Origin: Candidatus Nomurabacteria bacterium GW2011_GWE1_32_28
Lineage (GTDB): Bacteria; Patescibacteriota; Minisyncoccia; Phycocordibacterales; UBA9973
Length of the DNA stretch: 64,000 bases
NCBI GenBank assembly: GCA_000989515.1
Contig: LBOM01000005.1
Coordinates: 2,709-66,708 of the forward strand
Direction of reading: 5' to 3'
The position numbers were made by a program, and so were the translations under genes. This document shows positions 7,702 through 64,000 of the stretch, piece by piece. A model generated the notes under the pieces. The model did no database searches, had not been told where the DNA came from, and saw only the letters and a list, made by a program, of their open reading frames with translations. Within the stretch, counting starts at the first letter, position 1. Every line of letters begins with the position of its first letter.

Positions 7702-7737
7702 GCGATTATTATATCAAATTATGTTAAAATTGCATTT

Positions 7738-9390
7738 ATGCAGAAATATTCTGAATTATTAAGGACAATTTTACAAAAAAGGGGAATAAAAGATCAAGCT
7801 TTAGCTGAAATTTTTTTAAATCCAGACTATGAAAGAGATTTACATGATCCATTTAAAATGAAAGATATGGAAAAAGCTTGTGTTAAACTTTTTGAGGTAA
7901 TAGAAAATAAAGAAAAAACTATTATTTATGCTGATTATGATTGTGACGGTATTCCTGGGGCAGTCGTTTTAGAGGATTTATTTAAAAAAATAGGTTATGA
8001 GAATTATAAGGTTTATATTCCTGGTAGAAATTCTGAAGGTTATGGTTTGAATTCTTCTGCCATAGAACAATTTGTCGAAAAAAAAGTGAAACTTTTAATT
8101 ACTATTGATCTTGGAATTACTGCAGTTTCTGAAATTGCTCAAGCAGAAGTACAAGGGATTGATGTCATTGTGACAGATCATCATTTACCACACACTACTT
8201 TGCCTCGCGCGTATGCCATATTAAATCCAAAAGTAGATGATTATCCAGAAAAAACATTGTGTGGAGCTGGAGTTGTTTTTAAATTAGTACAAGGATTTGT
8301 AAAAAAGTATGGTGAATTTTATAAGATAAATACTGGTTGGGAAAAATGGTTATTAGATATGGTTGGTATTGCTACACTTTCAGACCTCGTTCCTCTTTTA
8401 GGAGAGAATAGAGCTTTATCATATTTTGGAATGAAGGTTCTTAAAAAATCACCTCGTGTTGGTTTACAAAAACTTCTTTCTAAAATGAAAATTGACCAGA
8501 AATATTTAAATGAAGATGATGTTGGTTTTATGATAGCACCAAGACTAAATGCAGCATCACGAATGGATGATCCGATGAGAGCTTACGAAATTCTTTCTAC
8601 GGAGGATGAAGTTAATGCTGGTATTCTCGCAGATCATTTATCAAAAATTAATGATGATAGAAAAACAATGGTTGCGAGCATAATGCGTGAAGTAAATAAG
8701 AAATTTGAAAAACGCGAGATTAGAGAAGTTATAGTTGTAGGTAATCCTAAATGGCGCGTCGGTGTCCTTGGACTTGTGGCTAGTAAGATTGTAGATCAAT
8801 ACAAAAGACCTGTTTTTGTTTGGGGTAAAGATGAAAATGATTTAATAAAAGGATCTTGTAGGTCAGATGGTTCAGTATCTCTTGTTGAACTTATGACAGA
8901 AGCTAATGAATCTTTCTTGGAATTTGGTGGACATGAATTTGCTGGTGGTTTTACTGTTGATAATGAAAAGATTCACTCTTTAGAGGATGTTCTTTCTTTG
9001 TCTTTTGTTAAGGTTGCTCGTGATAAGATAGAAGAAAAATTAATCTATGATGTTGAATCTGATTTGAGTATTGTAAACATGAAAAGCTGGCGTGAACTAG
9101 AAAAACTTGCTCCATTTGGTTTTGATAATCCAAAACCTATTTTTTTATTTAAAAATATAAATATAGAAAATATAAAAAAGTTTGGAAAGAATGGTTCTCT
9201 AGAACATTTAGAAATTACTTTTTCTAATATTGGTAAAAATAAGATTAAAGCAATTTCTTTTTTTTCAGATAATGATTCTTTTAAAAAGACCATCAATGAA
9301 GGTGACAAAGCTGATTTATTGGCAACCTTTGATCTTTCTAGGTTTAGAGGAAGAGAAGAGCTAAGATTAAGAATAATTGATATAATATAA
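7738..9390 (+). CDS. recJ: Single-stranded-DNA-specific exonuclease RecJ (DHH/DHHA1)
   Basis: DHH motif VTDHHLP, DHHA1 GGHxxAGG motif EFGGHEFAGGF, 550 aa. Confidence 0.8.
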   Translation: MQKYSELLRTILQKRGIKDQALAEIFLNPDYERDLHDPFKMKDMEKACVKLFEVIENKEKTIIYADYDCDGIPGAVVLEDLFKKIGYENYKVYIPGRNSEGYGLNSSAIEQFVEKKVKLLITIDLGITAVSEIAQAEVQGIDVIVTDHHLPHTTLPRAYAILNPKVDDYPEKTLCGAGVVFKLVQGFVKKYGEFYKINTGWEKWLLDMVGIATLSDLVPLLGENRALSYFGMKVLKKSPRVGLQKLLSKMKIDQKYLNEDDVGFMIAPRLNAASRMDDPMRAYEILSTEDEVNAGILADHLSKINDDRKTMVASIMREVNKKFEKREIREVIVVGNPKWRVGVLGLVASKIVDQYKRPVFVWGKDENDLIKGSCRSDGSVSLVELMTEANESFLEFGGHEFAGGFTVDNEKIHSLEDVLSLSFVKVARDKIEEKLIYDVESDLSIVNMKSWRELEKLAPFGFDNPKPIFLFKNINIENIKKFGKNGSLEHLEITFSNIGKNKIKAISFFSDNDSFKKTINEGDKADLLATFDLSRFRGREELRLRIIDII

Positions 9391-9393
9391 AAA

Positions 9394-9894
9394 ATGAAAA
9401 AAGATAAAATAATAATTTATACAGATGGTGCTGCGAGAGGAAACCCAGGTAAGGCTGGATGGGCAGCTATTATAATCAATTACGAATTACGAATTACGAA
9501 TCCAAAAATAATAGAGCTTGGTGGTTCATCTAGTTATGCCACAAATAACCAAATGGAGCTTTCTGGGCCAATAGGAGCATTAAAATATCTACATTTAAAT
9601 TCCGCTAGGCAAGGCCTAGCGCATGATGTAGAAATTTTTTCTGATTCAAAATACGTTATATTGGGTATTACAGAATGGATTTTTAATTGGCAGAAGAATA
9701 ATTGGAGAAATGCAGCCAAAAAATCAGTTTTGAATAAAGAGCTTTGGGTGGAGCTTTATGAGCTTTCTAGAGAATTTAAGATTAAATGGACTTATGTAGA
9801 AGGTCATAGTGGTGATAAATATAATGAAAGAGCAGATGAAATAGCTACAAATTTTGCTGATGGCAATAAAATAGAATTAAAAAACGAAAGATAA
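9394..9894 (+). CDS. rnhA: Ribonuclease HI
   Basis: IYTDGAARGNPGKAGWAAI N-terminus, TNNQMEL and HSGDKYNERADEIA catalytic regions; carries an in-frame (AATTACGA)3 repeat at 9477-9503. Confidence 0.8.
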   Translation: MKKDKIIIYTDGAARGNPGKAGWAAIIINYELRITNPKIIELGGSSSYATNNQMELSGPIGALKYLHLNSARQGLAHDVEIFSDSKYVILGITEWIFNWQKNNWRNAAKKSVLNKELWVELYELSREFKIKWTYVEGHSGDKYNERADEIATNFADGNKIELKNER

Positions 9895-9923
9895 TTTTTT
9901 ATAATTTTAACCTTAAAATATAA

Positions 9924-11402
9924 ATGCAAGATAAAGTTTTTTATGCATCTTGTTTTGGTTTTATATTTGGAGTGCTGTTGCGCTCTTTTGTTTTTGTAGA
10001 TTTATATTTAGTTATTTTATTTATGTTAATTGCTTTGGCAATTATTTTGTTTTATTCCTTAATTTCAAAAAATAAATGGGGAATATTTGTAGGAATTTTT
10101 ATTTTAGTTTTCTCTTTAGGGATTTTTAGATTTAATATGGTTGATGTTTCTGCTCCTGCAGTTTTTGAATCAAGTCTTGGACAAAAAGCATTTTTCTCTG
10201 GAGAAATAATAGACGAACCGAGTATAGGAGATACTAATCAGAAATTTAGTGTAGAAATTAAGAATAATAAAGATAAAACAAAAGTTTTGTTGTCTGTAAA
10301 TTTAAATGAATATTTAAAATATGGTGATGAAATAAATTTTGAAGGAACACTAGAGAAACCAGAAAATTTTATCACAGATCAAGGAAAAGAATTTGACTAT
10401 ATAAATTATTTACGGAAAGATGGCATATTTTATGTTATGAGATATCCTACGATTGAAATTGTATCTCATGGGAATGGTAATTTTATAAAAAATGCTCTTT
10501 TTTATGTTAAAGAAATGTTTTTAAATAAAATGAATTTGGCTATAAGAGAACCAGAATCATTGCTCATGGGTGGACTTATTTTAGGAGAGAAAGCTTCATT
10601 TGATGAAAGTTTAAGGCAAAGTTTTGTAGATACTGGTACGATACATATTGTTGCACTTTCTGGGTACAATGTGACTATCGTTGCTGAGTGGATAATGAAA
10701 ATATTTTCTTCATTTCCTAAAAACATAGGTCTTGGTGCTGGTATATTTTCTATTCTTCTTTTTGTTTTGATGACTGGTGGGTCTTCTACTGCAGTACGAG
10801 CTGGAATAATGGCGAGTCTTGCACTTTTTGCACGTCTTATAGGAAGAAATTATGATGTTGCACGGGCACTAATACTTGCTGGTATTGTAATGGTTTTAAT
10901 AAATCCATTTGTTCTCGTTTTCGATGTTTCTTTTCAACTTTCTTTCATAGCGACTGTCGCTGTGATATTCTTTGCACCTAAAATTGAGAAATATTTTTTA
11001 TGGGTCACTACTCGTTTTGAATTACGAGATATTATTTCTGTAACATGTGCAGCTTATATTTTTGTTTTACCTTTTATACTTTATAAGATGGGCAATCTTT
11101 CATTGGTGGCATTGCCTGCGAATGTTTTGATATTACCATTTATTCCTTTTACTATGATTTTAGGTTTTCTGACTGGTTTTACAGGAATTATTTGGTATGT
11201 TTTTGCAATTCCTTTTGGTTCACTTTCTTTTGTTCTTCTTCATTATGAACTCTCTGTAATAAGTTTCTTTTCAAATTTGCCATTTGCTGCATTGTCTGTG
11301 CCAAATTTTCCATTTATTCTTACACTTTTAATTTATATCTATTTTATTTATAGACTTTTTGGAAGGAGCATCAAAAGTTTTTTTAAAGAAGCTTTAGAAT
11401 AG
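9924..11402 (+). CDS. comEC: ComEC/Rec2-family DNA internalisation channel, membrane (DUF4131 + competence) part only
   Basis: 492 aa polytopic membrane protein with ComEC-like N-terminal OB/DUF4131 region and competence-domain TM core; no metallo-beta-lactamase domain in this ORF. Confidence 0.6.
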   Translation: MQDKVFYASCFGFIFGVLLRSFVFVDLYLVILFMLIALAIILFYSLISKNKWGIFVGIFILVFSLGIFRFNMVDVSAPAVFESSLGQKAFFSGEIIDEPSIGDTNQKFSVEIKNNKDKTKVLLSVNLNEYLKYGDEINFEGTLEKPENFITDQGKEFDYINYLRKDGIFYVMRYPTIEIVSHGNGNFIKNALFYVKEMFLNKMNLAIREPESLLMGGLILGEKASFDESLRQSFVDTGTIHIVALSGYNVTIVAEWIMKIFSSFPKNIGLGAGIFSILLFVLMTGGSSTAVRAGIMASLALFARLIGRNYDVARALILAGIVMVLINPFVLVFDVSFQLSFIATVAVIFFAPKIEKYFLWVTTRFELRDIISVTCAAYIFVLPFILYKMGNLSLVALPANVLILPFIPFTMILGFLTGFTGIIWYVFAIPFGSLSFVLLHYELSVISFFSNLPFAALSVPNFPFILTLLIYIYFIYRLFGRSIKSFFKEALE

Positions 11403-13063: not shown

Positions 13064-14289
13064 AAAAATTAATAAATTTAGAAAAGAAAAGACAAGCTGA
13101 AGGCTTGGAGCTTATTCCATCCGAAAATTATGTCTCAGAAGATGTTTTAAAGGCAAATGGCTCTATTTTTACTAATAAATATTCTGAAGGATACCCAGGA
13201 CGTAGATATTATGGTGGACAGGAATTTACTGATAAAGTAGAGCTTTTGGCGATAGAACGTGTGTGTAAATTGTTTAATTGTAAGTTTGCAAATGTTCAAC
13301 CACATTCTGGCGCTCCTGCAAATCTGGCCGTTTATGCTGCACTTTTGAATCCTGGAGATACTGTCCTTGGTATGGATTTGTCTCATGGTGGACATTTAAC
13401 CCATGGTCATCCAATGACTCTTCCTGCGAAGATTTATAAGTTTGTTACTTATAAAATGAAAGATCCTGAAACAGGAGAGATTGATTATGAAGACTTAAGA
13501 AGGCAAGCCATAGAATTTAAACCTAAAATAATTCTTGCTGGATTTTCTGCATATTCACGAACTCTTGATTATAAAAAATTTGTGGAAATTGCAAAGGAAG
13601 TTGGTGCTGTTACTATGGCAGACATGGCACATATTGCTGGAATGATAGCTGGTGGCGCACTTCGAAATCCTTTTGATGATGGTTTTGATATTATAACTTC
13701 CACTACTCACAAAACTCTACGAGGACCTAGGGGTGGAATAATCTTAACTCGTGAAAATGAAGAAATAGCAAAGAAGATTGATAAAGCAATTTTTCCAGGG
13801 ATACAAGGTGGTCCTCATATGCATACTATCGCTGCTAAAGCAGTGGCTTTTGGTGAAGCAATGACTCCAAAATATAAAAGATATGTTAAACAAATTTTAA
13901 AAAATGCAAAAGCTATGGAAAAAGTTTTACATAAAAATAATATTCGTATGATAGGTGGTGGTACAGACAATCATCTTATTTTGGCTGATGTTTTTGGTTC
14001 TTTGGGTGTGACAGGCAAAGAAGCTCAGACTGTACTCGATGAAGTAGGTATTACTTTAAATATGAATTCTATTGCAGGAGATACAAGGAAGCCATTAGAC
14101 CCTTCTGGTATAAGGTTTGGCACTCCAGCTATCACTACACGTGGTTTTAAGGAAAAAGAATGTGCTTATGTGGCAGGACTTATTATAAAAGTTTTAAAAA
14201 ATAAAGATGATAAGAAGTTAAAAGAATCGGTACATAAAGAAATTAAAAAATTAGCAAAAAAGTTTCCAATACCCAAAAGTTTTGTTTAA
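13045..14289 (+). CDS. glyA: Serine hydroxymethyltransferase
   Basis: LELIPSENYVS, YSEGYPGRRYYGG, THKTLRGPRGG (PLP-Lys) motifs; 414 aa. Confidence 0.9.
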   Translation: MRDKQIEKLINLEKKRQAEGLELIPSENYVSEDVLKANGSIFTNKYSEGYPGRRYYGGQEFTDKVELLAIERVCKLFNCKFANVQPHSGAPANLAVYAALLNPGDTVLGMDLSHGGHLTHGHPMTLPAKIYKFVTYKMKDPETGEIDYEDLRRQAIEFKPKIILAGFSAYSRTLDYKKFVEIAKEVGAVTMADMAHIAGMIAGGALRNPFDDGFDIITSTTHKTLRGPRGGIILTRENEEIAKKIDKAIFPGIQGGPHMHTIAAKAVAFGEAMTPKYKRYVKQILKNAKAMEKVLHKNNIRMIGGGTDNHLILADVFGSLGVTGKEAQTVLDEVGITLNMNSIAGDTRKPLDPSGIRFGTPAITTRGFKEKECAYVAGLIIKVLKNKDDKKLKESVHKEIKKLAKKFPIPKSFV

Positions 14290-14398
14290 AAATTAAATAA
14301 TTCTATGGACGAAAAAGATAAGATGAAAAAAGATTTTAGTAGTAGAATAAACATGAAATAGATTTTCAATTTGTGGCTTTTTTTGCTATATTTTCTAT

Positions 14399-15091
14399 AT
14401 GTCTAAAAAAGGAAAACTAATAGTAATAGATGGAACAGACGGAAGTGGAAAAGCAACACAGGTTGAGCTTTTAGCTAAAAGATTAAAAAAAGAAGGCAAG
14501 ACAGTTAAAATAATAGATTTTCCTGATTATTATTCTAATTTCTTTGGTAAATTTATTGGGCATTGTCTAACAGAACAATATTATAATTTTGTTAAAGTTC
14601 ATCCTAAAATAGCTTCAGTCTTGTATGCAGCAGATAGATTTGAATCAAAAATAAAAACAGAAGATTGGCTTAAGAGAGGGTATATAGTAATAGCAAATAG
14701 ATATGTTTCTGCAAACCAGATTCATCAAGGTGGTAAGATAGCTAATATAAAAAAAAGACAAGCTTTTATTAAATGGCTAGATGAAATGGAATATAAAGTT
14801 TTTAAAATTCCAAGGCCAAATGTTGTAATTTATCTAAATCTTTCTATCCCTTTTATATTAAGTCTTATAAAAGAAAGAAATAAAAAGAGTAATCGTTCTT
14901 ATGTTGGTAAAAAGAAAGATATTGTAGAAGGTGATATAAAATATCTTACAAATTCTCAAAAGAGCGCTGTTTGGTTAGCAAAAACACAATCAGAATTCGT
15001 GCAAATAAAATGTGTAAATAAAAATATATTACGAACTAGAGAAGATATTCATGAAGAAGTTTATGAAAAAGTTAAAAAAATTACTAGATAA
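14399..15091 (+). CDS. tmk: Thymidylate kinase
   Basis: P-loop IVIDGTDGSGKATQ, DRF motif YAADRFES, NRY motif. Confidence 0.75.
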   Translation: MSKKGKLIVIDGTDGSGKATQVELLAKRLKKEGKTVKIIDFPDYYSNFFGKFIGHCLTEQYYNFVKVHPKIASVLYAADRFESKIKTEDWLKRGYIVIANRYVSANQIHQGGKIANIKKRQAFIKWLDEMEYKVFKIPRPNVVIYLNLSIPFILSLIKERNKKSNRSYVGKKKDIVEGDIKYLTNSQKSAVWLAKTQSEFVQIKCVNKNILRTREDIHEEVYEKVKKITR

Positions 15092-54181: not shown

Positions 54182-55082
54182 TAAATACTTTATAGAAATA
54201 GAAAAAAGATGTCCACACTTTCCCCATTGGGGCTTAGGTTGACATCTTTTTTCGTTTAATATATACTCTTTCAATCAGTATGATTACATTAAGAAACAAG
54301 TTTAAAAGGCGGTTTTAAGCAGACTTTCTTTTGTCTGTTGACCGCTTAAAAAGCGGTTTTTTATTTGGTAAGTATGGCTTGAAAATTGACAACTTAAATC
54401 CTATCCTAGTATTCTTGGACAACTTGCAAAAGTGTGTCCGGCATGCAGCCTGTATGCTTAGGGTCTTTTCAAAGCTAGAGATAGGAAATTGTTTAAATAA
54501 TTTTGAATGCCGAGCGGTCGGACTAGATTTTATTATAAGCATTGTTTTATCCTTATGTAATGTAAGGATTGTGATTTATAAATTTCTTAACAGGAAATTT
54601 AAGGGCGTATGGTGGATGCCTTGACTTTAAGAGGCGATGAAGGACGTGGCGTTGCTGCGATAAGCTTCGGGGAGGTGCTTAGCTACCTTTGATCCGGAGA
54701 TTTCCGAATGGGGAAACCCTATCAAGTAAACCTTGATAACTTTTATCTTTATGATAAAAGAGCATACCCTGGGAAGTGAAACATCTCAGTACCAGGAGGA
54801 ATAGAGACAAATATGTATTTCCTTAGTAGCGGCGAGCGAAAAGGAAGAAGCCCAAACCGTTCTCGCAAGAGGGCGGGGTTGTAAGATGACAATGTAGTTT
54901 ACTAGGAGAGTTAAAAAATAAATTATTAGTTGAAGTTGCTGGAAAGCGACACCGTAGGGGGTGATAGTCCCGTAAACGAAAATAATTTATCTCTTTTATT
55001 GTTATTCTTGAGTACCCCAGGACATGAATGGCCGGGGGGAATCTAGCGGAACTAACCGCTAAGGCTAAATACTCTTAAAGAT

Positions 55083-55119
<37 letters not shown>

Positions 55120-56640
55120 CAGCCCGATTAGGGCGGTGAAATAGACCTGAAACCATATGTCTACAAGGAGTCGGAGCAGGTATTTATATCTGCAACGGCG
55201 TGCCTATTGAAGAATGAGCCAACGAGTTTATTCATACTGCAAGGCTAAGCTGGCTAAAACAGCAGAGCCGAAGGGAAACCGAGTGTTAATAGCGCGAATG
55301 AGTAGTATGCATAAGACCCGAAGCCAGGTGAGCTTGCCATGAGCAGGTTGAAGTTTGTCGAAAGACAAATGGAGGACCGAACCGGTAGATCGTACAACGT
55401 CTTCGGATGACTTGTGGTAAGGAGTGAAAAGCTAATCGAACCTGGTAATAGCTGGTTCTCTCCGAAATAGCTTTAGGGCTAGCGTCACTGGAAGGTTTCG
55501 ACAGGGAGCAATCTCGCGAAACCTATCAAACTCCGAATACCAGAAACCATAGCTTGGCAGTTAGGCCATGGGGGCGAAGCTCCATTGGCCAAAAGGGAAA
55601 CAGCCCAGATCTCAAAATAAGGTCCCTAAATTTATGCTAAGTGTAAGATAAGAAGGTGGAATTTCTCTGACAATGAGGAGGTTGGCTTAGAAGCAGCCAT
55701 CCTTTAAAGATAGCGTAACAGCTCACTCATCTAGAGATTTTGCGTCGACATAGTACCGAATTTGAGGATTTCGTTTTTCTTCGGAAGAACGGAGTGGTAG
55801 GAGAGTGTTCCAATCTGCTGTGAAGTAGGACTCGTGAGAGCCTATGGAGCGTTTGGAAGTAAGAATGTTGGCACAAGTAACCGCAATGAGGGTGAGATCC
55901 CCTCACGTCGAAAGATCAAGGTTTCCTTGGTAATGTCAATCAGCCAAGGGTTAGTCGGGCCTAAGGGAATGGAGAAATCCGTACTCGATGGACATAGGGT
56001 TAATATTCCCTGACTTCTGTATTTTGTGATGGGACGACGGAGTGTAGTATGTATTGCTCATTATTGGATTTGAAGTTTGTTTACTAAAGATGAGGTGTAG
56101 GAAAATCCGCACACTGCTTTCAATGGCAAATCTAAGGTAAATGAAAAGTCTTAAGCCTCGGTTTAGGACAATAATACAAAGCACGCTTCCAAGAAAAATC
56201 TCTAAACTTAAAAATATAGAATCCGTACCGCAAACCGACACAGGTGATCAGGTCGAGTAGACCAAGACGAACGAGTGAGTGGTCCCCAAGGAACTCGGCA
56301 AAAAAGCAGCCGTAACTTCGGGATAAGGCTTGCCCCCACCACTTTGGATATTTCTAAATATTTGAGAGTGTTGGGAGAGTAAGATTTAAGTATCGAGCAA
56401 AAAGAGACAATGAGGAATTAAATTAAAGCTCTTCATCATTTTTTATTTCACAGAATTTTTTTGTGAAGTATCTAAAGTGGTGGGGGCCGCAGCGAAAGTT
56501 TCTCTGGCAACTGTTTACCAAAAACACAGCTCCCTGCGAACTCGTAAGAGGATGTATAGGGGGTGACACCTGACCAATGCCAGAAGGTCAAATATCGGCG
56601 GTGTATGTCGCAAGATGTATGCAGACTGATATAAGCCCTG

Positions 56641-56683
<43 letters not shown>

Positions 56684-57707
56684 ACCTTGTCGGGTAAGTT
56701 CCGACGCGCACGAATGGTGTAATGACTGGAGAACTGTCTCGGGGACCAGCTCGGTGAAAATACAATGCCGGTGAAGATGCCGGCTAAGTGCAGTTAGACG
56801 AAAAGACCCTAGAAGCTTTACTATAACTTGATATTGAGCATGTTTTTAAACTGCGTAGAATAGATGGGAGAGGTTTGAAGTGTACGGTTTCGGCTGTATT
56901 CTACTCGTCAGTGAAATACCATTCTTTTTGAAGGCATGTTCTAACCAATACGGCAAAAACGTATTGAGACAGTATCTGGTGGATAGTTTTACTGGGGCTG
57001 TACCCTCCTAAAAAGTAAAGGAGGGGTTTAAAGGTTAGCTAGGCGCGAATGGAAACCGTGCCGATAGTGTAATGGCACAAGCTAGCTTGACTGTAAGAGG
57101 TACATCTCAAGCAGGTGGGAAACCAGAACATAGTGATCCGACCATACGCATTAGACGCGGTGGAAGCTCAACGGATAAAAGCTACTCTAGGGATAACAGG
57201 CTAGTTCCGCCTAAGAGTTCATATCGACGGCGGAGTTCGGCACCTCGATGTCGGCTCACCTTAGCGCGGCGGTGGAGAAGCTGCCAAGCGTTTCAGACCG
57301 TTCTTCAGTCAATTATTAAATTGACTTCAGAACAGTCTGGATCCTCAGAGGAATAGTGAACGAAAGTGAACTACTGTTTTAATCGAAATTAACCATATTG
57401 CTGTTTGCAATATCACGGCGGTCGCGTTAAATTTATATTAACAAATCACGCGATGAAGTCGGGGTTTTCGGTGGAATCCTATCACATTTATGTGAGGACA
57501 ATACCGAGAAGAAAATTTATTTTTTCTTTGTAGAGACTACAAACCGACCCCCTTAAATTGGGGAATGTATAGTCCAATCCCATAAGTAATTATGGAAATT
57601 GCTAAAGCCTAAGGCCTAATGCCTAAAGCCTAGCATGTAGATGCGTGAGACAGGTTGGTCTCCTATCTACTGCACTCGTTGATTCTTGAGAAGATTTGCT
57701 CCTAGTA

Positions 57708-58527
57708 GGCCCGGAAGGGCTTTGCTACTTCACGAAGAAATTTGTGATGAAAAAGTGGCTAATAACGGTGAAGTCTTCATTGATGTTTCTGATTTGAGAA
57801 AAATAATATCATTCGATCCTTGATATTATGATTCGCTTGAGGACCAGAAATATGATAAGATAATACCGTGGGAAGTCGATTTAAAATTATGAAAGAAATT
57901 GAGAAAGCTTATATTGCTGGTTTTCTTGATGGAGATGGTAGTCTAATGCTTCAAATTAAAAAAAGAAGTGATAGTAAACGAGGAATTCGTTTTATGACAA
58001 CCATTTGTTTCTATCAAGACACTAGACATGAAAAGACTTTATATTGGATGAAAAAGATTTTAGGTATTGGTTATATTTCCAGAAGAAATGATGGAATGAC
58101 TGAACTTAGAATAAATGGATATGTGCAGATTGCAAAAATTCTTAAAGATTTATTGCCTTTTGTAAAATTCAAAAAAATACAAGCTAATATTTTATACAAA
58201 GCTTGTAATCTTTTATCTAAAACAAAGTTTAGTAATCTCTCGGAAAAACAATTAATTAAGCTCGTTGATTTAATTTTAGTTATTCAAGGTGAAAACTATG
58301 TTACTAAAAAGAAAAAAACCAAAAATGAATTGTTTAAAATTTTAAATTTGACCCCGTAACGACTTGTTTCCGACTTTATGTCGGAACGGACTTACATAAC
58401 ACTGGAAAGTTCTAATATATTTAATATATGAGAACAGGTTTATGTTTGTAATACGCCAACGCCTTAACTTTAATTAAAGAAAGGCGAAGATATAGTCTGC
58501 ACTCCTAGAAATAGGGGAGATATGTGA
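57708..58527 (+). mobile_element. Intron (likely group I) in 23S rRNA, inserted inside the sarcin-ricin loop sequence, carrying a homing-endonuclease ORF
   Basis: Exon sequence CTCCTAGTA (ends 57707) resumes as CGAGAGGACCGGAG at 58528; the intervening about 820 nt contains ORF 57868-58359. Confidence 0.55.
57868..58359 (+). CDS. LAGLIDADG-family homing endonuclease (intron-encoded)
   Basis: YIAGFLDGDGSLML LAGLIDADG motif; 163 aa; located within 23S rRNA. Confidence 0.8.
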   Translation: MGSRFKIMKEIEKAYIAGFLDGDGSLMLQIKKRSDSKRGIRFMTTICFYQDTRHEKTLYWMKKILGIGYISRRNDGMTELRINGYVQIAKILKDLLPFVKFKKIQANILYKACNLLSKTKFSNLSEKQLIKLVDLILVIQGENYVTKKKKTKNELFKILNLTP

Positions 58528-58790
58528 CGAGAGGACCGGAGTGAACTGACCTCTGGTGTACGAGCTCTATTGCCAAATGGACTGCTCGGTAGCTATGTCG
58601 GGATTGGATAACCTCTGAAAGCATCTAAGAGGGAAGCCAGCTTCAAGATTAGGAATCGTTAAGAACCGTGAGAGATGATCACGTTGATAGGCTTTAAGTG
58701 TAAGCGAGAAGTACTAATGTTTCGATTCCTGTTAAGAAATTTGTAAATCACAATTAAAAAAATAAAAAAATTCATATTAATATTCATTAT

Positions 58791-58914
<124 letters not shown>

Positions 58915-59036
58915 TTTTTTATTTAAATTTGTCGCAGGATGCCCCGTCTTACAGGCACAGTACACCTTTTGGATTTTTTCATTCACGTTGTTCTGAAAAA
59001 TTCTCAAAAGCTCTTGCACTTGGGTCCCAAACCAAA

Positions 59037-59119
<83 letters not shown>

Positions 59120-59143
59120 CACTGAGTATTTGATTCTTTTAAA

Positions 59144-59222
59144 AACCTAATAAATTAATATTAGGTTTTTTATATATTTATTTGTTTAAAAAATAAAACC
59201 CTTGAATATTCAAGGGTTTTTT
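59144..59222 (+). terminator. Two tandem rho-independent terminators ending the rRNA transcription unit
   Basis: AACCTAATAAATTAATATTAGGTT+T5 (59144-59172) and CCCTTGAATATTCAAGGG+T6 (59199-59222). Confidence 0.7.
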
Positions 59223-59625
59223 GGGTTTTTAAAAGAGTTAAAAAAAAGATATTACTTACAATACATCATGCAATGGCTTTGGCCATTTGTTGCTGTTTTG
59301 CATTAATTATCAAATTTTTCAATTTGATTAATTCAGTCTTTTGACTGTTGATTCCAAGATTTTAAAGAACAATTTTGAAGCTTCTCGAATTTAAATTTAA
59401 GGGTGATGAATGGTTGCGAACCATCAGTGTTTCCATGCTAACCTCCAAATTAATTGATCATCTTTGAATTTATCTTTCCCTAAGAATTTAGGGGGAATAT
59501 ATCTTAAGAACAAACTAGATTCATATAAATGATACATCAAATTTTAGATTAATCAATAGGAAATGTGGAAAAACACAAAAGAAAGGATTTTATAGAAAAC
59601 GCTGTTTTATATATTATTTTGATAC

Positions 59626-59654
59626 TTGACATATTCATTTTTAACTTGTAGTAT
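59626..59654 (+). promoter_or_regulatory. Candidate sigma70-type promoter of the aspS-radical SAM operon
   Basis: TTGACA (59626-59631) - 17 bp - TAGTAT (59649-59654); strong SD AAAGGAGG 8 nt before the ATG at 59720. Confidence 0.4.
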
Positions 59655-59719
59655 CAAATTAAGTATGTGCGCCAAAATATTTTTGGCTTTGATAACTTAA
59701 TAAAAGGAGGTACCACGTT

Positions 59720-59989
59720 ATGGCTACAGAAAGATCAGTAGTTGAAGTCAAAGCACGGTGTAAACCACTCTTAGGTCAATTACCACTAGTTGAGTTTGTT
59801 CAACAAAGTGGTAGTCCTACAGCTGCTTATACTATTATTTTTTCTGAAACTAATAGTAAAGAATTAGCAAAGGCGGGACGATGGCTTGCTGTTTTAAAGC
59901 GAGACTTTCCGCAAGAGTATAATTCTGTCATTTTTTCACTTAAATTAAGCCATGCTAATGAAGCAAGGTTAAAAGGAGAATCATCATGA
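59720..59989 (+). CDS. Small hypothetical protein (89 aa), first gene of the coupled operon
   Basis: Strong SD; stop overlaps the aspS start (ATGA); no recognisable motifs. Confidence 0.4.
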   Translation: MATERSVVEVKARCKPLLGQLPLVEFVQQSGSPTAAYTIIFSETNSKELAKAGRWLAVLKRDFPQEYNSVIFSLKLSHANEARLKGESS

Positions 59990-61305
59990 AAACTGTTTCT
60001 GCAAATCAACATCTCAATGTCCATGCTTGTTCTTTAAATGAATACGATAGACAAAAAATAACCATAAGCGGAGCGATTTACAGAATTCGCAAGTTAGGAG
60101 GAGGGTTATTTTTTATCGTTATTCGCGACGGAGAATCTTTGATTCAATGTAAACTTGAATCAAACGAGAGTATAATTTCTATAGAAGAATATTCTGAAGG
60201 AGATTATGTTTCTATTACGGGTATTTGTCAAAAAGAAAATCGTGCTCCACATGGAGCTGAAATTAAAGTTCAAAGTATAGAAATTTTATCAAAATCAACA
60301 GAAGAGATGCCTTTTTCTATAAATCAAAAGCTCTTTGAAGTTGGTCTAGATAGTAATCTTAACTTTCGTCCAATTAGTTTACGACATCCAAAACAGCGTG
60401 CAATTTTTGCTATTCAATCAGCAATTTCAATGCTTTTCAGGCAGGGATTAAGCTTGATTGATTTTACAGAAATTCACACTCCAAAATTAGTTTTTGCTGG
60501 CGCCGAAGGTGGAGCCAATGTATTCAAGGTAAAATACTTTGAAAGAGAACTTTTTTTGGCCCAATCACCTCAGTTTTATAAACAAATGATGGTTGGAGTT
60601 TTTGGTAAGGTAATGGAGGTGGGTCCAGTATTTAGAGCGGAACCACATGAAACTTCTCGACACCTAAATGAATATACTTCAATGGATCTCGAGGTAGGAC
60701 CAATCAAAAGTTTCGAAGATATAATGGAAATTGAAACTTATCTTCTTAGATATATTTTTGAAGAACTTCCAAAATTCTGTTCAGCAGAATTAAAATTATT
60801 AGAGGTTTCCATGCCACAGATTAATAATATTCCTATTATTAAAATGTCTGAAGCATTGGAAATCATTAGTAAAAATCGTAAAATAAAAGATAGGAGTGAT
60901 CTTGATCCTCAAGGAGAACAGATTATTTGCCAATACATTTTTAAAGAAACTGGTAGCGAATTTGTTTTTGTTACTCACTATCCGACAATTAAACGTCCTG
61001 TATATGCAATGGAAGATCCTGAAAATAATGAAGTTACATTAAGCTTTGATCTACTTTTTCGTGGATTAGAAATCACGACTGGAGGGCAAAGAATCCATGA
61101 CTACAAGATGCAAGTTGAAAAAATGAAACGTCTTGGTTATAATCCAGATGATTTTGTATCTTATCTTCAAATCCATAAATATGGTATGCCACCTCACGGT
61201 GGATTTGGTTTGGGTTTAGAGAGACTAACAATGCAACTTCTTAATCTTTCAAGTATTAAAGAAGCTTGTCTATTTCCAAGAACTATAAATAGGATAACAC
61301 CATGA
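59986..61305 (+). CDS. aspS: Aspartyl-tRNA synthetase, archaeal/eukaryotic type (class IIb, about 439 aa, no GAD insertion)
   Basis: N-terminal OB anticodon-binding domain; FLAQSPQFYKQ Asp-recognition loop; motif 2 FRAEPHETSRHLNEYTSMDLE; motif 3 HGGFGLGLERL. Confidence 0.8.
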   Translation: MKTVSANQHLNVHACSLNEYDRQKITISGAIYRIRKLGGGLFFIVIRDGESLIQCKLESNESIISIEEYSEGDYVSITGICQKENRAPHGAEIKVQSIEILSKSTEEMPFSINQKLFEVGLDSNLNFRPISLRHPKQRAIFAIQSAISMLFRQGLSLIDFTEIHTPKLVFAGAEGGANVFKVKYFERELFLAQSPQFYKQMMVGVFGKVMEVGPVFRAEPHETSRHLNEYTSMDLEVGPIKSFEDIMEIETYLLRYIFEELPKFCSAELKLLEVSMPQINNIPIIKMSEALEIISKNRKIKDRSDLDPQGEQIICQYIFKETGSEFVFVTHYPTIKRPVYAMEDPENNEVTLSFDLLFRGLEITTGGQRIHDYKMQVEKMKRLGYNPDDFVSYLQIHKYGMPPHGGFGLGLERLTMQLLNLSSIKEACLFPRTINRITP

Positions 61306-62603
61306 AAAACTCAGAATATAAAACAAGGCTTTTCCATGGTTTGCCTGCAGTTTTTTGCAATAACCATTGGGTAGTAATATCTCCTTACGCTGGAGAACTG
61401 GTTCGTATTGATGATGATAAATTTGATAGTCAGGAAACAAAAATAGAGCTAGAAAAGAAAGGATTCTTTGGACATCCATCAGAAAAAGGACCTGGTGCTT
61501 TAAGTGATTACCTTCAGTTGACCTTAATTACAAACAGTGATTGCAATTTAAAATGTAGTTATTGTTTTGCTAACGCTGGAGAAACTAAGATTGTTATGGA
61601 AGAGAATGTGGCTTTTGCTGCGGTTCGTTATTCTGTTAAAAAAGCAAAAAGCAGAGATTTATTAATTTCATTCTTTGGTGGTGAACCTTCTTTAACCCAG
61701 TCATTGATTAAAAAAGTTGTTGCTTATGCAAAGCAATCAATAATCGGTACTGAAGTTAAAAAAGTACGTTTTAATATTACCACTAATGGAGTAATGAGTA
61801 AGTCTTTCTTAAACTTTTTAATTGATAATGATTTTTTTCTTACAATTTCAATGGATGGATTACCTATTGTTCAAAACCATCAAAGACCACTAAGATATCC
61901 ATCAAAAGGAAGCTTTGACTCTTCTCCAATTTTGGAAAGAACAGTTAAAACGTTAGTTGCTAAAAAGCATGAATTTATGATCAGAGCTACAGTTACTGAT
62001 TTTTCTGTAAAATATCTTGTGCAAACAATTCAGTATTTAGATAATCTTGGAGTGACTCAATTTCACTGTGAAGTTATAAATCTTGCTGGTAGAGCCATAA
62101 TTAAAACTAAAGGACAACCAATGAAACGTCCGGCAGTAGATGATTTTATAGAAAATCTTAAAGCTTCTATCTTAGAAGCTGGTAAACTAGGAATGGGAAT
62201 TTTAAACTCATCTTACATGAATCTTCTTCAACCATCAGTGCATTTCTGTGATGGTGTGGGAGGAAATAGAATTTCTGTTTCTTATACCGGTGAAGTAACT
62301 ACTTGTCTTGAAGTACAAGGTGGTTGTCATCCAACAGCTGATAATTTTATTATCGGTGCTTATAATAAAGAAACAGGTGATATAGATATTAGTTCTTTAA
62401 AGCAGCTAAAAATTTGCAGTAATCCAATTACTAGTCAAAATTCTTGCTGTAAGGATTGTTTCGCTATTTACATTTGTGGTGGCGGATGTCCAATTCGTAA
62501 CTATCACATGACAGGTGATCAAAATAAAGTAGATCTTTTTCGTTGTCAGGTTATTAAATCAATTTTACCATTTATCTTTGATCTTTTTGACCAAAGCAGT
62601 TAA
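61302..62603 (+). CDS. Radical SAM enzyme with C-terminal SPASM/twitch Cys cluster and about 85-aa N-terminal extension (peptide-maturase-like)
   Basis: CNLKCSYCF (CxxxCxxC) at about aa 81-89; C-terminal ...CSNPITSQNSCCKDCFAIYICGGGCPIRNY; start overlaps the aspS stop (ATGA). Confidence 0.75.
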   Translation: MKNSEYKTRLFHGLPAVFCNNHWVVISPYAGELVRIDDDKFDSQETKIELEKKGFFGHPSEKGPGALSDYLQLTLITNSDCNLKCSYCFANAGETKIVMEENVAFAAVRYSVKKAKSRDLLISFFGGEPSLTQSLIKKVVAYAKQSIIGTEVKKVRFNITTNGVMSKSFLNFLIDNDFFLTISMDGLPIVQNHQRPLRYPSKGSFDSSPILERTVKTLVAKKHEFMIRATVTDFSVKYLVQTIQYLDNLGVTQFHCEVINLAGRAIIKTKGQPMKRPAVDDFIENLKASILEAGKLGMGILNSSYMNLLQPSVHFCDGVGGNRISVSYTGEVTTCLEVQGGCHPTADNFIIGAYNKETGDIDISSLKQLKICSNPITSQNSCCKDCFAIYICGGGCPIRNYHMTGDQNKVDLFRCQVIKSILPFIFDLFDQSS

Positions 62604-62638
62604 ATAGATTAAAATGAATAAGAAGGAGGTGATAAAAG

Positions 62639-62713
62639 ATGAAGACTTATAAACTTATAATTCCAAAAGGAATTATCGTTAAACAAGGTCGCGTTGCTTC
62701 TTGTGACGATTAA
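62639..62713 (+). CDS. 24-codon ORF MKTYKLIIPKGIIVKQGRVASCDD with strong SD (candidate precursor peptide; speculative)
   Basis: AAGGAGGTG 7 nt upstream of the ATG; followed at 62742-62773 by a perfect terminator hairpin; not in the supplied ORF track because it is too short. Confidence 0.3.
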   Translation: MKTYKLIIPKGIIVKQGRVASCDD

Positions 62714-62741
62714 ATTCAAGCCAGTTATTCTGGCACATCAA

Positions 62742-62773
62742 GGGATAGAAAAATTAATTTTTCTATCCCTTTT
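62742..62773 (+). terminator. Rho-independent terminator
   Basis: GGGATAGAAAAATT-AATTTTTCTATCCC followed by TTTT. Confidence 0.75.
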
Positions 62774-62841
62774 ATTATTTTACATCATTGTAAATTTATT
62801 TTAATAATTGTAATATAAATGAGTTCCCTAGTTAAATATTT

Positions 62842-63243
62842 ATGTATAAAAAAGAACAAGAAATAGAAATTAAAAACTTATCACTTTTACCTAAGAATAT
62901 TTTTCATTTAGTTCCTGAAGAACTATTTAATAAGTTTATTAATAAAAATGGTGATTATGATTGTAGATATAAAAAAGTATGGGGAAATAATTCTCCTTTT
63001 ATACATACTACACCCACAAAAAAGCAATTAAAAAAAAGAGTCGCTGATGTTAATTGGTCAAAATATCCAATAAAAAAGAATTTTTTATTATTAAAAATAG
63101 ACACAAGAAAAATTAACAGCAAGGTGACCTATTCAATCTTTGAAAATAATATTTACCACCACATCTGGGGAAAATTACTAAAAGAATCTTTTCAGATAAT
63201 AGATGTCGTTCGTGACAAAAATGGTAAATTTTTATTTTTATAA
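62842..63243 (+). CDS. Hypothetical protein (133 aa)
   Basis: ORF only; Lys-rich; no motifs recognised. Confidence 0.3.
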   Translation: MYKKEQEIEIKNLSLLPKNIFHLVPEELFNKFINKNGDYDCRYKKVWGNNSPFIHTTPTKKQLKKRVADVNWSKYPIKKNFLLLKIDTRKINSKVTYSIFENNIYHHIWGKLLKESFQIIDVVRDKNGKFLFL

Positions 63244-63342: not shown

Positions 63343-64000
63343 TTAAAATTTAAAAAATGTTTTAGCATTTTTATAAAAAACTTTCTCTTTTATTCTTTCT
63401 CTCTCTGGAGCTGTAAATGTATTTATGGCTGATCTAATAGCATTCATTGATAACCAATGAGAATGTATTACCCCACTAGCTAAATGAGAATATAAACGAT
63501 GATTTTCTTCGTCAACCCAGTGGTATAAATATTCTGTAATAAGCCATTGACCTTTTTTAGGATGTATAAATACTTGAGACCTAATAAGATATAATGGTTC
63601 ATCACTACCAAACATTATTCTATCTTCACCAAATATATCTAGTGCTAGTTTAACTATTTCTGGAGACGGATTAAGGGCGGTATCTAAAAAAATATTTTCA
63701 TACGTTGTAAACTCTTTAAAGACACTTTTGAGTTGAGGAATCAAAACTTTTAAAGATCCGAGGTGTGCAATTGAAATTTTCAAGTTTGGAAAATCTTTTA
63801 AAACTTGTTTTAAGTCTCCCTTACTTTCGGTTATAATTTTTGGTAAATGAAGAATAATTGGAATACCAAGTGTTTGAGCTTCTTCTAATATTTTTGGTTT
63901 GAAAAACTCATAGATTTTTGTAGCTGTAGGTTCTACATAAGAGTAATACATTTTCAAAGCTGAAACTCTTGGATTACTTAACATTGATATTGTATATTCT
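63343..64000 (-). CDS. Amidohydrolase-2-family (TIM-barrel metal-dependent hydrolase)-like protein, N-terminus probably beyond the window edge
   Basis: C-terminal-half motifs (IAHLGS, FGSDEP); no N-terminal HxH within the window. Confidence 0.45.
   Translation of the reverse strand, partial: EYTISMLSNPRVSALKMYYSYVEPTATKIYEFFKPKILEEAQTLGIPIILHLPKIITESKGDLKQVLKDFPNLKISIAHLGSLKVLIPQLKSVFKEFTTYENIFLDTALNPSPEIVKLALDIFGEDRIMFGSDEPLYLIRSQVFIHPKKGQWLITEYLYHWVDEENHRLYSHLASGVIHSHWLSMNAIRSAINTFTAPERERIKEKVFYKNAKTFFKF

Follow-up and report, generated by a model that had tools for sequence, protein, structure and literature searches.

A synthetase-linked radical SAM/SPASM peptide cluster in a candidate phyla radiation bacterium and the correspondence between precursor residue and synthetase in its wider family

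Introduction

Why should an aspartyl-tRNA synthetase (AspRS) be translated together with a radical S-adenosylmethionine (SAM) enzyme of the SPASM type, and why should a peptide of only 24 residues be encoded directly behind them? This question is raised by an operon of Candidatus Nomurabacteria bacterium GW2011_GWE1_32_28, a member of the Candidate Phyla Radiation (CPR; Patescibacteria), which lies in a 64-kb stretch of DNA, hereafter the window, on the contig designated L001; the same proteins are also found on a 410-kb contig. The first-pass annotation of the window had seen in this operon a maturase of the type that makes peptides which are produced by the ribosome and modified after translation (RiPPs), paired with a tiny precursor ending in Cys and Asp and functionally tied to AspRS, and the comparative sequence evidence presented here supports that core reading. 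The window probably contains a RiPP cluster for a Trojan-horse inhibitor of AspRS together with its self-protection genes, in which the encoded AspRS would be the resistant copy of the target; modification, inhibition and resistance are deduced from the genes and from analogy. This reading is drawn because two patterns recur around an unrelated maturase and an unrelated core motif. One is a rule that links a single precursor residue to the neighbouring synthetase. The other is the presence of all three protective gene families known from microcin C, a ribosomal peptide whose processed form inhibits AspRS and whose producers are protected by MccE (a GNAT acetyltransferase), MccF (of peptidase family S66) or MccG (of peptidase family S51) (PMC9239234).

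The operon and its precursor peptide

The operon comprises the following features, among them four open reading frames (ORFs).

59720-59989, plus strand: p89, ORF of 89 amino acids
59986-59989, plus strand: ATGA overlap of p89 and AspRS
59986-61305, plus strand: AspRS ORF, 439 amino acids
61302-61305, plus strand: ATGA overlap of AspRS and the radical SAM gene
61302-62603, plus strand: radical SAM/SPASM ORF, 433 amino acids
62623-62629, plus strand: Shine-Dalgarno sequence AAGGAGG for the p24 ORF, 9 nt before its ATG
62639-62713, plus strand: p24, precursor ORF of 24 amino acids, MKTYKLIIPKGIIVKQGRVASCDD
62740-62771, plus strand (feature drawn to 62781): intrinsic terminator closing the operon, a hairpin with 14 bp in its stem and 4 nt in its loop, then a T-run

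The four ORFs, both overlaps, the Shine-Dalgarno sequence and the terminator had all been listed by the first-pass annotation and are confirmed. It had also named the co-occurrence of the radical SAM gene with aspS and a small ORF in related genomes, and the conservation of the 24-codon frame, as points to be checked, and both are found in relatives.

Homologues of the radical SAM enzyme were gathered from a protein database, a genome collection and a metagenome collection. Within the clade of at least 42% identity, all of whose members are CPR bacteria, every locus with downstream sequence carries a short ORF directly after the radical SAM gene, and the precursor frame is conserved in about 20 related loci. 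In nearly all of them it is preceded by a strong Shine-Dalgarno sequence, it stops at the same position and it is followed by a terminator, hairpins like that of the window lying 3' of the precursor in other loci as well. The frame is exactly 24 codons long in 13 loci and 26-35 codons in the rest, and it ends in C-D-D in all but two loci, which end in C-F-D. The CPR precursors share the leader motif K-L-x-I-P-K-G-I-I-V, followed by G-R-[LV]-[GA]-[NS]-C-D-D and the stop codon. The codon differences among these frames include many synonymous ones; between the window precursor and that of locus L085 there are eight synonymous and three non-synonymous codon differences. By these patterns of sequence conservation p24 is a real, conserved precursor under coding constraint, and it is missing from the gene calls of the source assemblies. 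Three loci show possible decay or assembly problems: in L085 (4963-6253) the radical SAM gene is split into two ORFs, in L092 (~1536-1640) a stop codon interrupts the precursor, and in L004 (6558-6626) the precursor ORF contains a stretch of N.

Residue-to-synthetase correspondence in the wider family

Relatives of the radical SAM enzyme at 30-39% identity are found in Nitrospirae, Alphaproteobacteria, Chlorobiales, Lachnospiraceae, Aenigmatarchaeota and other metagenome-assembled genomes. These distant relatives also adjoin short ORFs with one invariant Cys near the end, and the peptides terminate in C-X-D or C-X-G-C (...EEMCED, ...ANERCHD, ...E[KS]CFD, ...LECVD, ...LEC[AG]QD, ...EQICND and ...LEC[WY]GC). 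The main finding of the comparison is that the residue X after the Cys equals the specificity of the aminoacyl-tRNA synthetase encoded in the cluster for six amino acids:

C-D-D, CPR loci: AspRS, in five gene orders and as two types with only about 35% identity between them
C-H-D, three loci: HisRS directly downstream (415 bits on TIGR00442, cutoff 287)
C-F-D, L012: PheS and PheT
C-V-D, L095: ValRS
C-W-GC, L111/L112: TrpRS directly after the radical SAM gene
C-Y-GC, L110: TyrRS directly after the radical SAM gene

The peptides with Trp and Tyr at X, which accompany TrpRS and TyrRS respectively, differ at only two other positions. When the two non-orthologous AspRS types are counted as separate events and a chance of 1/20 is allowed for each event, seven of the nine independent synthetase adjacencies match X (binomial P = 2.6e-8). 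Some distant loci of the family carry extra radical SAM or B12-radical SAM tailoring enzymes.

A separate sub-family was seen in L014, L098, L102, L105 and L107 (radical SAM enzymes at 32-35% identity). Its precursors of 52-60 amino acids end in ...R-S-E-[SA]-C-[I/F/G], with the Cys penultimate, and no synthetase gene was seen in these five loci. The cluster adjoins Liv-type amino-acid ATP-binding cassette (ABC) transporter genes in L014, L098, L102 and L105; L107 is a 1.8-kb contig.

The radical SAM/SPASM enzyme

The enzyme of the window matches the Pfam Radical_SAM model (36.3 bits against a gathering threshold of 29.5) and also Fer4_12. Its CX3CX2C motif (C81/C85/C88) is invariant in 23 family members. 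Equally invariant are seven C-terminal cysteines (C316, C335, C383, C386, C392, C396 and C415), including a CX2CX5CX3C pattern, and the protein aligns with SPASM maturases over its whole C-terminus. The SPASM-type auxiliary Cys cluster claimed in the first-pass annotation is thus present, although the window enzyme gives no match to the Pfam SPASM model PF13186. An N-terminal extension, likewise claimed, precedes the core with about 72 conserved residues. Among relatives of solved structure the best match is CteB, a thioether synthase (5WGG, 1e-43), the alignment with which starts at residue 39, corresponding to CteB chain residue 67, and the extension may be a domain resembling a RiPP recognition element (RRE).

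Among hidden Markov models the best scores belong to peptide maturases, all of them below the respective family cutoffs: PapB (NF047865; 155.6 bits, cutoff 340), the SCIFF maturase (TIGR03974; 128.7 bits, cutoff 425), the nif11 maturase (122 bits) and QhpD-type enzymes (98 bits, cutoff 453). No housekeeping family is matched, including the anaerobic sulfatase maturases (80 bits, cutoff 349) that the first-pass annotation had named as a possible alternative identity; by its sequence the enzyme appears to be of the peptide-maturase type. Of the model searches that had been suggested for the operon, that with the radical SAM protein gave maturase-like matches and that with p89 gave none in Pfam or NCBIfam. 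The family has about 45 close members, with more distant ones across many phyla, and it displays the generic features of radical SAM/SPASM RiPP maturases, namely the CX3CX2C motif, the seven-Cys SPASM region and an adjoining short ORF (about 20 loci of the CPR clade and about 25 distant loci). PapB, CteB and QhpD are thioether-forming enzymes, PapB and QhpD acting with an essential Cys and, mostly, a nearby Asp as acceptor. Every one of the nearest characterised relatives of the window enzyme makes Cys thioethers, and in two of them the partner of the Cys is Asp/Glu.

AspRS and its partner p89

The window AspRS exceeds the cutoffs of NCBIfam NF003483 (aspartate--tRNA(Asn) ligase; 523 bits, cutoff 353) and TIGR00458 (386 bits, cutoff 368). 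It has an OB anticodon-binding domain (PF01336) and a class II core (PF00152), with intact QSPQ, FRAE and GLERL motifs. It is an archaeal-type enzyme, of the non-discriminating type, and looks fully functional.

Cluster-linked AspRS genes fall into the two types mentioned above, A and B. The window AspRS belongs to type A, a clade for which a set of 5.8 billion proteins contains only about 45 sequence clusters at or above 59% identity; for at least 14 of these the longest contig is as long as that of a radical SAM hit. The next relatives are Firmicutes enzymes at 50-56% identity, with no broad swarm of CPR sequences between. On this sequence sampling the type A clade is small and cluster-linked, and is not the general CPR AspRS. 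The similarity pattern of the radical SAM enzymes does not follow AspRS type, which indicates that the pairing arose or re-formed more than once.

Duplicate synthetases occur in two loci. In L007 two tandem AspRS genes both score above the curated cutoff, and in L174, where the AspRS is of type A or type-A-like, an S66 peptidase gene is nearby and a second bona fide AspRS lies 4.5 kb away. L174 is one of three loci, with L172 and L173, whose type A or type-A-like AspRS genes were looked up as not matched to radical SAM hits. In L172 the genes for a p89 homologue, the type A AspRS and a ThiF/MoeB-like enzyme follow one another (7732-10088), and no SPASM radical SAM gene is nearby. L173 combines its AspRS with an AsnA-like ligase and an S66 peptidase, with a methyltransferase and a SAM decarboxylase, and with a further AspRS-like gene that scores below the model cutoff. 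Part of this set recurs next to AspRS-type genes in CPR contigs (L173 9409-12733 and L169 2785-5815) as a module of an AsnA-like ligase (an AsnRS catalytic domain alone, ~370 amino acids), a Peptidase_S66 protein and a SAM-dependent methyltransferase, joined in L173 by the SAM decarboxylase; it may represent a separate cluster related to Asp/Asn-adenylate.

Type A enzymes differ from 71 relatives outside the clade at 12 conserved columns. P220 (~60643-60645), which follows the FRAE motif, takes the place of a Lys present in 96% of these relatives, and T433 (~61282-61284) replaces the invariant Asp of the C-terminal FPRD motif. As candidate resistance substitutions such changes are a lead only, the pattern not being clean in type B or in the second copies of L174 and L007.

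Homologues of p89 lie directly upstream of cluster-linked AspRS genes in L013, L083, L085, L086/L168, L171 and L172. This position is kept in all cases, even in L172 where the SPASM radical SAM gene is missing, and p89 travels with AspRS and not with the maturase. The protein is rare (30 representative clusters among 1.84 billion proteins) and is predicted to be all-helical, a weak single-sequence AlphaFold2 model giving five helices at pLDDT 64. Identification of p89 as GatC, a PqqD-like RRE or a helix-turn-helix regulator was considered and rejected, since neither p89 nor any of its 28 homologues gave a signal in Pfam, NCBIfam or PDB.

Gene neighbourhood and protection-type genes

Clustering of the flanking ORFs over the CPR loci separates two modules, the second of which consists of p89 and AspRS. 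Both modules are adjacent in most CPR loci, in five different arrangements: a GNAT gene lies between them in L013, the AspRS gene is divergent in L005, two AspRS genes occupy the opposite strand in L007, and in L171 the AspRS gene is downstream on the other strand. The first-pass annotation had regarded the coupling to AspRS as obligate, a claim that these arrangements contradict.

Genes for S51 peptidases, Acetyltransf_3 GNAT proteins or S66 peptidases, assigned by family membership only, are found in 16 of the 18 C-D-D loci. Peptidase_S51 is present in nine (the window contig and eight others), an Acetyltransf_3 GNAT of the RimJ/RimL type in seven, and an S66 peptidase in L004. The two C-F-D loci of the CPR lack the Asp-specific S51 gene.

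Flanking features of the window

Further features adjoin the operon, the last of those listed below lying on the same contig beyond the end of the window.

59195-59220: terminator-like hairpin closing the rRNA unit
59626-59654, plus strand: promoter-like TTGACA-17-TAGTAT upstream of the operon, 10/12 matches
62842-63243, plus strand: p133, a DUF952-family protein with an ADP-ribosyltransferase (ART)/Tpt1-like fold
63343-64000, minus strand: Amidohydro_2 metal-dependent hydrolase/decarboxylase gene (Pfam PF04909), 342 amino acids in full, truncated by the window end
L001 13185-13964: Peptidase_S51 gene (PF03575, 4e-49), 1.3 kb beyond the window end

The near-consensus promoter noted in the first-pass annotation exists as a sequence, but it carries no weight because such matches are not enriched over shuffles in this DNA of 32% GC (26 found in the window against 22.1 +/- 4.3). 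That the operon starts at this site is only plausible. No riboswitch, T-box or other RNA was found upstream of the operon.

The p133 protein matches both the DUF952 sequence model and the ART-like fold, and may be an accessory enzyme of the cluster with either a biosynthetic or a protective role. The Amidohydro_2 gene is a possible cluster member; it has a homologue in L085, and other Amidohydro_2 genes abut the radical SAM gene in the archaeal loci L009, L018 and L092. About 1.4 kb beyond the window end, L001 encodes a stand-alone LPG_synthase_C/DUF2156 protein (14099-15001), a member of an aminoacyl-tRNA-dependent transferase family. Its position 2.8 kb downstream of AspRS recalls AspRS-DUF2156 fusions, and it is not conserved in the sister loci.

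Upstream, the 23S rRNA gene (54589-58737) is interrupted: the main match ends at 57407, and it is 58508-58737 that corresponds to model positions 2653-2912. Within the ~1.1-kb insert is a LAGLIDADG homing-endonuclease ORF (57868-58359). A degenerate second 5S-like sequence (59019-59121; 37.2 bits against a gathering score of 38) follows about 120 nt after the 5S gene (58796-58901). The 64-kb window contains no 16S rRNA gene and no tRNA genes; thus the 23S-5S unit is unlinked from 16S.

Proposed function and its alternatives

In the proposed pathway, the radical SAM enzyme would bind the p24 leader through its N-terminal RRE-like domain and, by analogy with PapB, CteB and QhpD, would most likely join Cys22 to the C-terminal Asp by a thioether that spans Asp23. 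In this way X, which is Asp in p24, would be locked into a small warhead at the C-terminus, and p133 may decorate or detoxify the product. Target cells would take up the mature peptide and their peptidases would trim it, whereupon the Asp-bearing warhead could occupy the active site of AspRS and stop translation. The producer would be protected in two ways: by the co-transcribed AspRS of the special clade, which together with p89 would provide a target that is resistant or in surplus, and by the S51 peptidase encoded downstream of the window as a putative detoxifier, a RimL-type GNAT or an S66 peptidase taking that part in sister loci.

A number of observations weigh against this proposal. The cluster has the GC content of its surroundings (31.7% against 32.1% for the genome window) and therefore gives no sign of recent transfer; neither an exporter nor a leader peptidase is conserved in the cluster; and the window AspRS may be the sole AspRS of its genome. 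Chemically, it is not evident how Cys-X-Asp would mimic an aminoacyl-adenylate, and a cross-linked Cys before X leaves no obvious free alpha-amine or N-terminal Asp on which GNAT or S51 detoxification could act. The residue rule has exceptions as well. One mismatch is clear: in the archaeal locus L018 (4738-7242) a bona fide TrpRS gene lies directly upstream of a precursor ending in ...IECGNDD, and no alternative precursor that would rescue the match was found there. In L163 an AlaRS gene lies 740 bp upstream of a C-D-D locus on a contig that ends 1 kb after the radical SAM gene. Within the available sequence no matching synthetase is found at the C-F-D loci L103, L164 and L169, nor at the C-E-D and C-N-D loci.

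Whether the wider family forms an undescribed RiPP class of bacteria and archaea is evenly balanced in our judgement. In such a class a SPASM radical SAM enzyme would turn a C-X-D or C-X-G-C terminus into a synthetase-directed warhead, X would set the target, and the targets would include at least the enzymes for Asp, His, Phe, Val, Trp and Tyr, i.e. both synthetase classes; in the CPR branch p133 might add a nucleotide-like group using NAD+.

The synthetase could instead be a biosynthetic partner, supplying aminoacyl-tRNA as in pearlin/PEARL or Fem/MprF-type systems or presenting X to the radical SAM enzyme, with the product an amino-acid-derived small molecule or cofactor that the S51 peptidase cuts out of the scaffold peptide. 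We consider this rather unlikely. The translational coupling of the p89, AspRS and radical SAM genes is consistent with it, a residue-matched synthetase could equally reflect substrate recognition, the S51 peptidase could excise a C-terminal product, and the DUF2156/LPG_synthase_C gene stands close by in L001. A precedent for such a role is noted by the authors who described the tiarins, discussed below: cluster synthetase genes can serve tRNA-dependent biosynthesis, e.g. of valanimycin (bioRxiv 10.64898/2025.12.02.691738). However, the precursor itself encodes X, which makes a tRNA-dependent addition unnecessary; PEARL/LanB-like enzymes are absent, and the other loci do not share the DUF2156 gene. 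A housekeeping synthetase would suffice to supply aminoacyl-tRNA, many family loci have no synthetase nearby, and S51, S66 and GNAT proteins are the known detoxifier families of an AspRS inhibitor.

It is also unlikely that the modified peptide acts internally to hold back the AspRS of the producing cell, much as a toxin-antitoxin system would, causing growth arrest or persistence, with the peptidase or acetyltransferase as the release. The lack of a conserved exporter, the tiny CPR genomes with a possibly single AspRS, the co-transcription of inhibitor precursor and target, and the lack of any compositional sign of mobility would all suit such a regulator. Yet the same architecture accompanies six synthetases in free-living bacteria and archaea, some loci include radical SAM and B12-radical SAM tailoring enzymes typical of secreted natural products, the duplicated AspRS genes of L007 and L174 fit target-copy resistance, and the analogues, microcin C and the tiarins, are exported antibiotics.

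That AspRS is a plain housekeeping gene, brought beside an unrelated RiPP cassette (e.g. a ranthipeptide-like signal) by inherited gene order, is very unlikely: the enzyme does look functional, all C-D-D loci come from one superphylum in which some shared gene order is expected, and incidental synthetase neighbours do occur (AlaRS in L163; LeuRS and GlyRS in L169), but the adjacency survives rearrangement, inversion and replacement of AspRS by the 35%-identical type, the radical SAM and AspRS similarity patterns are incongruent, five other synthetases match X in unrelated phyla, and the AspRS clade, a small one, nearly coincides with such clusters.

If the Trojan-horse reading and its extension to the whole family are true, the clusters would be a second natural system of one scaffold for many synthetases, independent of the tiarins, and in CPR bacteria and DPANN-type archaea they would be the first natural-product clusters that follow a target-resistance logic. 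The target synthetase could be read from the residue behind the Cys, and the scaffold could be re-aimed among synthetases, which are validated antibiotic targets. The chemistry would be new, a radical SAM enzyme acting on a minimal C-terminal tripeptide to give a compound that imitates an aminoacyl intermediate. The ultra-small bacteria of the CPR and archaea with small genomes, usually seen as metabolically stripped, would be investing in targeted translation inhibitors and the immunity that matches them, with a bearing on how CPR and archaeal episymbionts compete with or control their hosts. Further clusters can be mined by way of the radical SAM family, a precursor terminus of C-X-D or C-X-GC, AspRS genes of the type A clade and p89.

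Comparison with known systems

The first-pass annotation considered the AspRS-radical SAM arrangement to be undescribed, and the full-text literature, a coverage that leaves out most subscription journals, yielded no description of a synthetase-linked radical SAM/SPASM family or of such RiPP clusters in the CPR, the only relevant work being that on the tiarins and microcin C. One candidate for a prior description, PMC13149037, proved to be unrelated. The nearest enzymes to the window maturase are PapB, SCIFF/CteB and QhpD, and the nearest systems are the tiarins and microcin C.

PapB, CteB and QhpD give the best model and structure-sequence matches and share with the window enzyme the SPASM region and its putative N-terminal RRE-like domain. 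Unlike their substrates, p24 has a single Cys at its extreme C-terminus, without the repeated CX3D of the PapB substrate, the six Cys of the 45-residue SCIFF peptide or a QhpC-like subunit. To our knowledge no synthetase linkage exists in these families.

The analogies with PqqA/PqqE and MftA/MftC and with EpmA/EpmB that the first-pass annotation had drawn do not hold. The pyrroloquinoline quinone (PQQ) and mycofactocin systems do share with the window a small precursor with a SPASM radical SAM enzyme, modification near the peptide C-terminus, as predicted for p24, and a partner of about 90 amino acids; PqqD and MftB are partner proteins of that size that act as stand-alone RREs. The PqqE and MftC models, however, are not among the 25 best of 67 NCBIfam hits for the radical SAM enzyme, the E-X3-Y and G-V-Y motifs and the other pathway genes are absent, and p89 has no PqqD match and is linked to AspRS rather than to the maturase. 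EpmA and EpmB, which lysylate elongation factor P (EF-P), are a truncated LysRS paralogue and a radical SAM enzyme of the lysine 2,3-aminomutase type. The window AspRS reaches only 57.7 bits against the genX cutoff of 287, and its radical SAM partner belongs to the SPASM class rather than to the KamA-like aminomutases.

With microcin C the cluster would share the presumed target, AspRS, and an active residue at the C-terminus of a short ribosomal peptide, and the same three detoxifying families occur nearby (RimL-type GNAT, S66 LD-carboxypeptidase and S51 peptidase). It differs in that no MccB-type ThiF adenylyltransferase is encoded in the window or in the radical SAM loci, the precursor of 24 residues ends in Asp-Asp and not Asn, and no nucleotide attachment is evident, unless by way of the ART-fold p133. 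Locus L172 was considered as a microcin C cluster and rejected; its ThiF/MoeB-type protein of 252 amino acids is generic and below all cutoffs, and no MccA-like ORF was found there. A cluster-encoded AspRS is absent from the self-immunity strategies listed for microcin C (PMC9239234).

The tiarins are trifolitoxin-like RiPP inhibitors of synthetases made by flavin mononucleotide (FMN)-dependent dehydrogenases; in them the cluster synthetase, which is a resistant duplicate, corresponds to the residue that precedes a conserved Gln, the warhead is acetylated by a GNAT once processed, and the authors call one scaffold shared across synthetases unique to tiarins (bioRxiv 10.64898/2025.12.02.691738). 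The clusters described here resemble them in having a ribosomal precursor in which a conserved core residue, here Cys and not Gln, stands beside a variable residue matching the cluster synthetase, in serving several synthetase specificities on one scaffold, in their frequent GNAT neighbours and in their occurrence in bacteria and archaea. They differ in having no TfxB/TfxC (FMN-dependent dehydrogenases with an RRE) in the window or related loci and no Gln-derived fluorophore, and in combining a SPASM radical SAM enzyme with a C-terminal Cys-X-Asp or Cys-X-Gly-Cys in which the specificity residue follows the conserved one; they are known from their genes alone. Thus, a RiPP inhibitor of a synthetase accompanied by a matched resistance synthetase is a known principle, and novelty appears to lie in the family of the enzyme, in the motif of the core and in the range of hosts.

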